Below, piece after piece: positions 1,540 to 3,339 of a DNA stretch of 64,000 nucleotides. The notes under the pieces are model-generated. The model did not search any database. It saw only the letters and a program-made list of their open reading frames with translations, and was not told where the DNA came from. The stretch is taken from assembly GCF_055900595.2 (NCBI RefSeq), contig NZ_CM148325.1. The stretch is one strand, 5' to 3'. Both the position numbers and the translations under genes were made by a program. Position 1 is the stretch's first letter, and each line of letters opens with the position of its first letter.

Positions 1540-2241
1540 TCAGAACGTTTTCTCGTTGGGTTGCCAGCGACAGAAATCAGAGTTTGCCACTAACAGTAAT
1601 TGCGAACCTTCGGGCGCTTCCAGCCATGCCACGCTGACATCAACAGAAGAGCGGCTCTGGCGGCGCTCGATATGCGCTATCGCCTGCGAATCTAAATCAG
1701 GTTTAATGGTTTGCCCTTCGCAGGTGGTCACGGTCTGTTCCATCGCATGCCAGCGCCCCTGGCGCAGCACGACTCTCCCCTGACGTAAGGCATCGCTAAT
1801 CTGGCGGATCTGATCAGCACGATAACGGTATAAATCGATTTGGTCGTTAGAAAGCTGCTGCTTTTCCCCATCGGATTCACGTTGCATAAAGCTCAGATCG
1901 CCGCGATCGTCAAAACGCGCGCGAATATTCACCGGCGGTTTGCTGTAAACATTGATATTGATAAGCGTGAGGTTATCGCCCTGCCAGCGATACTCTCGCG
2001 TCGTGGTATCGCCACTGCGCCACGGGCTAAACACAGCAAGCAGATGCACATTATTGCCACTGTCTTTTCGCCAGATACGTACCGCGCCCTGATCTTCAGC
2101 AAATCCACTGGCGGTAAAGGGAGGAAGTGAAGAGTTGTGACTACAGGCAGTGAGAAACAGAGCGCCCGCCAGCATCAATGATCGACGCCAGAAAGACAAA
2201 AGGGGTGAAACCACCCCTTCGTTAAAACTGTTCACTGCCAC
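1540..2241 (-). CDS. yjaH: DUF1481 putative lipoprotein YjaH
   Basis: 233-aa ORF with lipobox-like LFLTAC; directly downstream of hupA on the same strand. Confidence 0.8.
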   Translation of the reverse strand: MAVNSFNEGVVSPLLSFWRRSLMLAGALFLTACSHNSSLPPFTASGFAEDQGAVRIWRKDSGNNVHLLAVFSPWRSGDTTTREYRWQGDNLTLININVYSKPPVNIRARFDDRGDLSFMQRESDGEKQQLSNDQIDLYRYRADQIRQISDALRQGRVVLRQGRWHAMEQTVTTCEGQTIKPDLDSQAIAHIERRQSRSSVDVSVAWLEAPEGSQLLLVANSDFCRWQPNEKTF

Positions 2242-2247
2242 GCAATC

Positions 2248-2520
2248 TTACTTAACTGCGTCTTTCAGTGCCTTGCCAGAAACAAATGCCGGCACGTTAG
2301 CTGCGGCAATTTTGATTTCTTTACCGGTCTGCGGGTTGCGGCCAGTACGCTCAGCGCGGTGGTTCACTTTGAAGGTACCGAAACCAACCAGTTGTACAGC
2401 ATCGCCTTCTTTCAGAGACTCAGTAATTGCAGCCAGAGTGGACTCCAGAGCAGCTTTAGCCTGGGTTTTGGACAGTTCTGCTTTCTCTGCAATTACATCA
2501 ATCAGTTGAGTCTTGTTCAT
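2248..2520 (-). CDS. hupA: DNA-binding protein HU-alpha
   Basis: 90-aa [29 protein letters not shown]...; HU family signature GFGTF. Confidence 0.95.
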
Positions 2521-2706
2521 AAGTTATCCTTACAATGTGTTTATCGCTTGCTAAGCATCGAGTGCGACGGAAATGCCAGAATAGCACTCTCCTGCATACA
2601 CGCACCGATAGCCACTTTTTTTCGCCCCCCAAATGTAGACCAGACGGGGGGCGAAAGGGAAGACTCCAGGTATGACAAATCAGGCGTTAAATCACGTTTT
2701 CTGGTC

Positions 2707-3297
2707 TTATTGCTGAAAAATTATACCAATATTGCTCTCGCCCGCCTCACGCAGGTCTGCCCTAAGGCCTTTTATCAGCTCGATATCGCGTTCTTCGCAC
2801 TCAGCTAAAAGTCGGAATATTTCCCACTGAATGTCCCACTCTTGCTCTACAGCTGGGTTTTCTTTGAGCTCTTCATCGCTCATTTCACGGCCAGCCTGAG
2901 TCATTTCCAGCATCGCCACGGTCGTGATGGAGGTCTTACTCACTTCTACCGCGTGTTCGAGCGTTTCGCCACTTAAACGCGAATGGACCAGTTCACTTAA
3001 CGCCACGCAAGCATCGATTGCCGGATAAACGCCGTACAGATCGAAATCGTCGGCTGAAGGAATCGCTTCTTCAAATTTCTCCAGTTGGCTGTCGAAATTT
3101 ACTTTTGCGTCTTTGACGGTCAGCGTTTCCCAGATGAGATCGAGAATACGGCGGTAAATTTGCCCATCACCAAAACCAGTTTGCTGACAGAACATGGCGT
3201 AATTAGGGTACATGCGTTCGCATAAGCAGGCCATAAAAGTGACGTGCTGCCAGCTTTCCAGGCGCTCCAGACGCAGATGAATTGGGTTTTGTAACAT
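2707..3297 (-). CDS. yjaG: DUF416 protein YjaG
   Basis: 196-aa ORF; last gene of the nudC-hemE-nfi-yjaG cluster. Confidence 0.85.
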   Translation of the reverse strand: MLQNPIHLRLERLESWQHVTFMACLCERMYPNYAMFCQQTGFGDGQIYRRILDLIWETLTVKDAKVNFDSQLEKFEEAIPSADDFDLYGVYPAIDACVALSELVHSRLSGETLEHAVEVSKTSITTVAMLEMTQAGREMSDEELKENPAVEQEWDIQWEIFRLLAECEERDIELIKGLRADLREAGESNIGIIFQQ

Positions 3298-3339
3298 GTT
3301 GAGTTCTCAAATACGGAAATTATCCGCAGTTTACCTGAA

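Follow-up and report, generated by a model that had tools for sequence, protein, structure and literature searches.

Between the genes yjaG and hupA of the Escherichia coli chromosome lies a conspicuous inverted repeat, built of G and C tracts and bordered by a homopolymer run, and the question that it raises is whether it acts as a terminator, as a structure in RNA, as a binding site for a regulatory protein, or as some other element of the DNA itself. The analysis described here, conducted on a stretch of 64,000 nucleotides (the window), leads us to conclude, with a probability of roughly 0.8, that the repeat forms the core of hupAp1, the one major promoter of hupA, and is read at the level of DNA, each arm being a promoter sub-element in its own right and their complementarity in Escherichia incidental. 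The feature is an ordinary one that had already been described, as the hupAp1 core promoter and a published palindrome; it is neither a terminator nor a structure in the leader RNA, and it carries little weight beyond its correct annotation under that label.

An inverted repeat downstream of yjaG

A 501-nucleotide stretch surrounding the repeat was found to be 100% identical to many complete E. coli genomes, in which the flanking genes are annotated as yjaG and hupA, and the window is accordingly E. coli chromosome. Its positions convert to those of K-12 MG1655 (U00096.3) as 4202801 minus the window position. The genes flanking the repeat are as follows:

3297..2707, minus strand: yjaG coding sequence (DUF416)
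2520..2248, minus strand: hupA coding sequence (HU-alpha, 90 amino acids), with yjaH next

The intergenic region between them, in which RefSeq annotates no feature, is 186 nucleotides long, differs from that of K-12 MG1655 at one base outside of the repeat, and holds the repeat where an earlier note on this DNA had correctly placed it, downstream of yjaG and upstream of hupA.

A repeat search returned two arms, TTTCGCCCCCC at 2620-2630 and GGGGGGCGAAA at 2646-2656, each of 11 nucleotides and 100% complementary to one another, with 15 nucleotides between them; the sense (minus) strand across the element reads CCCTTTCGCCCCCC-GTCTGGTCTACATTT-GGGGGGCGAAAAAAAG. The G/C-tract inverted repeat that the earlier note had claimed was thereby borne out, its arms perfect and beyond chance expectation, with slightly different limits: it had been given as 2616-2655 around a 16-nucleotide spacer, but at 2616 a T7 run begins, the right arm extends to 2656, and 15 nucleotides separate the arms. 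When the intergenic region was shuffled 5000 times with its dinucleotides preserved, a perfect 11-base-pair inverted repeat with a spacer of 3-20 nucleotides arose in only 2 of the shuffles, and the 64-kb window contains a single C6-N(5-30)-G6 pattern where 0.04 would be expected. The element folds as a hairpin of -26.2 kcal/mol in RNA (z = -3.7), and as hairpins of -14 and -13.3 kcal/mol on the two strands of DNA (z = -5.4 and -4.1). The inverted repeat is not a chance event.

Within the species the element is both fixed and solitary: of 5388 complete E. coli genomes with a match to its 60-nucleotide core, 5355 carry it with 100% identity, and the median genome holds one copy (two places at the highest). 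While REP/BIME and other repeated extragenic palindromes are likewise G/C-rich, intergenic and found in E. coli, the hupA repeat differs from them in being single-copy (a median of one place per genome) and orthologously retained in place as part of a promoter; the notion of a repeated element was rejected on the basis of that single copy per genome.

Anatomy of hupAp1

A transcription start for hupA (p1) at -105 from the ATG was already known (Kohno 1990 and Claret 1996, by S1 and primer extension as cited) when it was listed by Mendoza-Vargas et al. 2009 (PMC2760140), whose own 5'-RACE experiments returned exactly the same start, at -105 (Table 1 and Table S1 of that paper); as those authors point out, their 5'-RACE did not select for 5'-triphosphate ends. 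When this start is placed upon the window, the repeat resolves into the successive parts of a promoter (all on the minus strand, in order of transcription, and numbered relative to the start):

2656..2661 (-36..-31), minus strand: probable -35 hexamer TTCCCT with an 18-bp spacer, an assignment that we infer
2646..2656 (-31..-21), minus strand: upstream arm TTTCGCCCCCC, the C-tract, in the spacer between the -35 and -10 elements and overlapping the last base of the -35 hexamer
2631..2645 (-20..-6), minus strand: 15-nucleotide spacer ('loop') of the repeat, GTCTGGTCTACATTT, containing the -10 element
2632..2637 (-12..-7), minus strand: -10 hexamer TACATT, preceded by TC at -14/-13 and ending 7 nucleotides upstream of the mapped start
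2620..2630 (-5..+6), minus strand: downstream arm GGGGGGCGAAA, comprising the G/C-rich discriminator, the +1 G and the first transcribed bases
2625 (K-12 U00096.3 4200176), minus strand: hupAp1 transcription start, G at +1, which lies -105 from the ATG at 2520, is the last G of the G6 run, and falls inside the downstream arm
2616..2622 (+4..+10 of the hupA mRNA), minus strand: A7 tract, largely conserved, and the 'wrong-side' run of the earlier note

The hexamer TACATT displays an A at its second position and a T at its sixth, and it ends within 5-9 nucleotides of +1; Table S1 of PMC2760140 lists TCTACATTTG as a -10 box, and predicts GTCTTCCCT as the -35 box of this start. The -35 element of E. 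coli, TTCCCT, matches the consensus at three of six positions, while TTCACA, which occupies the same place at the same 18-bp spacing in Kluyvera, Erwinia, Dickeya and others, matches at five of six. A simple promoter scan missed hupAp1, because its -35 element is too weak for the threshold of the scan, and the supplements of the Cappable-seq, Kim 2012 and Conway 2014 studies contained no usable entry for hupA.

Each of the three segments of the repeat would work as duplex promoter DNA: the C-tract arm within the -35/-10 spacer, the 'loop' as carrier of TACATT, and the G-tract arm as discriminator and start. A G/C-rich discriminator would be expected to make open-complex formation dependent on negative supercoiling and growth state, as we infer from other 'early' promoters that drive nucleoid-protein and stable-RNA genes, and the complementary arms in principle allow the E. 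coli promoter to extrude a cruciform. That G/C-rich discriminators contribute to supercoiling and stringent responses is established in general (PMC9221221), and its application to hupA is by analogy, so that such a role would be a presumptive one. The sigma-70 promoters of that class (rrn P1, tyrT and fis) resemble hupAp1 in having a G/C-rich run between the -10 element and +1 and a suboptimal -35 element; a further likeness is that expression of hupA is highest in early growth and that FIS is reported to activate the gene (PMC9221221). Stringent promoters, however, typically possess a short spacer of 16 bp, while that of hupAp1 is 18 bp. The literature searched held no direct statement on control of hupAp1 by ppGpp/DksA or by supercoiling through the discriminator.

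Both CRP and FIS are reportedly regulators of hupA, the former being named in the title of Claret 1996, and published positions for their sites at hupA were not found in the literature searched. A conserved block, AAAACGTGA, which resembles a CRP half-site, is located at 2692-2700 (minus strand; about -75..-67), just past the stop codon of yjaG.

A secondary 5' end was recorded at 2572 on the minus strand (-52; 3 reads, by 454 sequencing), with an extended -10-like sequence, TGcTATTCT, upstream of it at 2578-2586. A promoter at that sequence (2586..2578) was rejected as the main promoter of hupA, for it accounts only for the minor -52 end and its hexamer reads TTTTCT outside of Escherichia. 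Since most other genera have that hexamer, the -52 end and TGcTATTCT would represent either a minor promoter particular to Escherichia or a site of RNA processing.

Sequence conservation without covariation

A scan of a genome collection with YjaG returned 80 loci from different species of Enterobacteriaceae, 78 of which possess a yjaG-hupA intergenic region, and four more distant loci (from Cronobacter, Erwinia, Pantoea and Dickeya) were added. The intergenic region is exactly 186 nucleotides long in 72 of the 78 loci. The frequency of the majority base was calculated over the 73 genomes with a 186-nucleotide region, and covariation was assessed over 58 distinct sequences.

The start site lies inside the downstream arm, and the sequences of the -10 block, the C-run and most of the G-run are conserved. 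The majority frequency across the 73 genomes is 1.00 for the -10 hexamer, 0.998 for -20..-13, 0.96 for the C-run (-26..-21), 0.94 for -6..+3 and 0.98 for the leader, as compared to 0.89 and 0.71 for the third codon positions of hupA and yjaG, respectively; the entire stretch from -27 to the ATG (0.94-1.00) is therefore more conserved than the third codon positions of either gene. TACATT is invariant in 73 of 73 fixed-length intergenic regions, and the 'loop' that contains it (-20..-6) displays a majority frequency of 0.99-1.00 at each position in these 73 Enterobacteriaceae and is retained in Erwinia, Pantoea and Dickeya as well, save for position -20. Further upstream, CTTC at -37..-34 is invariant in the alignment of relatives. 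By comparison, the outer bases of the upstream arm at -31, -29 and -28 (0.56, 0.73 and 0.48) are as variable as synonymous sites, and accordingly look neutral.

The pairing of the arms presents a different picture. While the core of each arm is conserved as sequence across the 83 Enterobacterales genomes, the complementarity between them shows no covariation: none of the 11 pairs (0/11) is changed on both sides among the 58 distinct sequences, and the fraction of paired cells (80.8%) corresponds to that found in column shuffles (81.0%). The upstream arm drifts (TTCCG, TTCTG, ATCTG, ATTGG, ATTAG and so on) while its partner GCGAAA remains fixed, and the G-run is often interrupted at -4..-2 (GGAGGG, GGGAGG, GGAAGG, GTGGGG) with the C-run unchanged. 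Only 8 of the 83 genomes, namely those of Escherichia species, one Citrobacter amalonaticus and two Enterobacter, carry the 11-bp repeat in its perfect form, which in E. coli lies a single transition away from the common TTCCG form. A reduced C5-6/G-rich dyad of at least 7 contiguous pairs is retained in 37 of the 83 genomes. The Salmonella counterpart of the arms reads TTCTGCCCCCC/GGGAGGCGAAA, and the DNA hairpins of Salmonella, Klebsiella and Dickeya amount to about -5 to -6 kcal/mol (z -0.7 to -1.4), no better than shuffled sequence, as compared to -14 (z -5.4) in E. coli. These alignments indicate that selection probably acts on the sequence of each arm and not on the pairing between them.

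The standard promoter model does not account for one part of this pattern. A run of six C in the spacer corresponds to no recognised sigma-70 element, yet it is strongly conserved (0.96), perhaps through some other selection, for example on pairing with the G-run or on binding by some factor. It is this C-tract spacer and the ultra-conserved 105-nucleotide leader that the comparison singles out as being under strong selection.

A more ambitious interpretation of the same conservation is that the C-tract/G-tract dyad flanking the -10 element is a conserved topology-sensing device that couples HU-alpha synthesis to chromosome supercoiling across the Enterobacteriaceae, either through transient pairing (as a cruciform or slipped structure) or by being read by HU or another structure-specific protein, with a G:C core of 6-8 bp sufficing and the outer pairs dispensable. 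We regard such a device as quite unlikely.

Proposed cruciform extrusion and autoregulation by HU

A specific role for the palindrome was proposed thirty years ago. According to the HU-induced cruciform switch of Kohno et al. (1994), negative supercoiling promoted or stabilised by HU causes the repeat to extrude; with the -10 element then in an unpaired loop and the spatial relation of -35 to -10 disturbed, RNA polymerase cannot bind and hupA represses itself. A secondary source (PMC3969353, citing Kohno et al. 1990, 1994) states that hupA is negatively regulated by HU and that an inverted repeat with the capacity for cruciform formation overlaps its promoter, and also that HU is proposed to favour extrusion, sterically blocking promoter domains; according to that source, HU-dependent repression and a structural transition were reported by Kohno 1994. 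That a model for this very promoter has been published is itself a point in its favour.

The repeat search identified the arms at 2620-2630 and 2646-2656 as the sole significant inverted repeat overlapping the hupA promoter, and because no other such repeat overlaps it, the element described here is almost certainly the palindrome that Kohno published. When set beside the repeat of Kohno et al. (J Mol Biol 1990; J Biochem 1994), which belongs to the same gene and the same promoter and is again the only one that overlaps it, the present element shows no difference in kind; what is added here is that the perfect palindrome is largely confined to Escherichia, without covariation.

As a selected function the model implies that palindromy is itself maintained, and in E. 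coli it is compatible with the promoter reading as an added layer. In its favour, no other significant inverted repeat overlaps the promoter, the arms (-31..-21 and -5..+6) match one another perfectly, this perfect form is fixed in E. coli, and strong hairpins form from both DNA strands (-14 and -13.3 kcal/mol). HU, moreover, prefers cruciform and four-way junction DNA. Set against these points is the comparative record, in which pairing occurs without covariation, independent changes in the arms break it in most genera, the outer 5 pairs fall on neutrally varying bases, and the E. coli form is a single transition away from the widespread TTCCG variant; complementarity has not been maintained in evolution, which argues against the cruciform as a selected function. 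The energetics seem to weigh on the same side, for a spacer of 15 nucleotides is long for extrusion: a rough nearest-neighbour estimate places the cost at 28-30 kcal/mol before any junction penalty, and the critical unconstrained sigma at about -0.06, which exceeds the normal supply in vivo and, again as a rough estimate, makes extrusion marginal without a junction-stabilising protein. Stabilisation of the junction by a protein such as HU would therefore be required. Autoregulation by HU was also not mentioned in the later HU-regulon and HU ChIP literature that was searched. On this balance the cruciform switch appears possible in E. coli but doubtful.

The comparative result is of modest value in that respect: outside of Escherichia and a few relatives, the palindrome on which a 30-year-old model of cruciform autoregulation depends is imperfect, and the limited spread of that perfect form argues against the cruciform as a general mechanism of HU homeostasis in enterobacteria.

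Transcripts across the repeat and candidate binding proteins

Readings that treat the repeat as a structure in RNA are constrained by the position of the start. The earlier note had suggested an RNA processing structure in the hupA leader, but the hupA transcript begins at 2625, within the downstream arm, and its mRNA holds only the last 6 nucleotides of the repeat; the hairpin therefore cannot form in the hupA leader. The transcript end that maps to the repeat is a 5' end, the hupA start itself, and not a Term-seq 3' end.

The earlier note was right that the U-run lies on the wrong side (on the minus strand the hairpin is followed by A7, and on the plus strand T7 precedes it), and its conclusion that the element is not a canonical intrinsic terminator on either strand was confirmed by a terminator scan without a match. 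The resemblance to a Rho-independent terminator lies in an 11-bp G/C-rich stem beside a homopolymer run; the differences are that the run is A7 on the sense strand (with T7 5' of the stem on the other strand), that the loop is 15 nucleotides long, and that no 3' end has been mapped to it. A scan for the terminator consensus across 2200-3000 found 0 terminator-like sites, and the Term-seq tables of Adams et al. 2021 contain nearby 3' ends only at K-12 4200253 (in the hupA leader), 4200389 (in hupA) and 4200605 (the hupA terminator). An intrinsic terminator was rejected on these three grounds: the lack of a scan match, the U-run on the wrong side, and the lack of a Term-seq 3' end at K-12 4200181-4200190. 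A known RNA family was likewise rejected, an Rfam covariance-model search of window 2200-3300 having returned no match at E <= 1.

There remains the suggestion that the hairpin forms in read-through transcripts from yjaG, where it might act as a terminator that lacks a U-tract, as a barrier to 3' exonucleases, or as a processing site that separates the yjaG mRNA from that of hupA. The entire repeat would indeed be transcribed, though only from upstream promoters, its RNA hairpin is stable (-26.2 kcal/mol, z -3.7), and there is no other terminator-like site between the two genes, a point on which the literature searched offered no direct statement. The absence of a U-tract from both strands, of any Term-seq 3' end at K-12 4200181-4200190 and of an Rfam match to the read-through hairpin region, together with a stem that is weak in most genera and without covariation, nevertheless makes this reading very unlikely.

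The 'loop' sequence TCTGGTCT can also pair with AGACCAGA at the yjaG stop codon, a pairing that was treated as chance because the upstream copy is not conserved.

The earlier note's other suggestion, a protein-binding palindrome, fared better in part. Since RNA polymerase binds there, and since the HU/cruciform model has been published for the promoter, the most suitable description of the repeat is that of an element of the DNA which proteins contact. No sign of an operator for a dimeric transcription factor was seen, the arms varying independently across species. Perfect dyad symmetry over a promoter is typical of repressor operators, and the C-run is more conserved than is normal for a spacer, as might be expected if a dimer recognised both G/C-tract half-sites. 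The centres of those half-sites are, however, 26 bp apart, or about 2.5 helical turns, which places them on opposite faces of the helix; in addition to the independent variation of the half-sites, the outer half of one arm is neutral, and each genome, like the window, contains the motif a single time. The literature searched names no such factor for hupA (of the known regulators, FIS is stated to activate hupA in PMC9221221, and CRP appears in the title of Claret 1996), and a dimeric operator is the least probable of the readings weighed here. The hupAp1 core promoter is the reading that we retain.

The hupA leader and neighbouring elements

The leader that begins within the downstream arm is itself of some note:

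2521..2625, minus strand: 105-nucleotide 5' leader of hupA, extremely conserved and predicted to be structured

Its majority frequency of 0.98 compares with 0.89 for the third codon positions of hupA (73 species of Enterobacteriaceae). RNAalifold predicted a long stem, spanning +11 to +91, whose pairs are almost all unchanged, with a few one-sided G-U changes and no compensatory change; so nearly invariant a stem gives no basis for judging covariation in the leader. Such conservation suggests that the leader, which matches no Rfam family, is an uncharacterised post-transcriptional element. Within it lies a Term-seq 'orphan' 3' end at window 2548 (K-12 4200253, minus strand), 28 nucleotides upstream of the ATG (Adams 2021). 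That end implies a 5'-UTR-derived fragment of roughly 78 nucleotides, or premature termination or processing.

In Dickeya fangzhongdai, an insertion of roughly 125 nucleotides (at about 1915-2040 of that locus, L082) occupies the apical loop of the leader hairpin, and the remainder of the leader is unchanged. The inserted sequence, GAGCTTACTTGAGTAAGTGA...GGGGTGAGCGAGGAAAGCCAACGCAC, resembles an ERIC/IRU repeat.

At the distal end of hupA, an intrinsic terminator (GGGGTGGTTTCACCCC, followed by a T-run) is located at about 2196-2225 on the minus strand, with a strong Term-seq 3' end at K-12 4200605; it lies inside yjaH as annotated, at the 5' end of a coding sequence that opens 12 nucleotides past the hupA stop codon. 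Elsewhere in the window, a long perfect inverted repeat with arms of at least 15 bp (GTAAAAATGACTCGC...) was observed at 982-1023, upstream of zraP, and may be the enhancer-binding site of ZraR.
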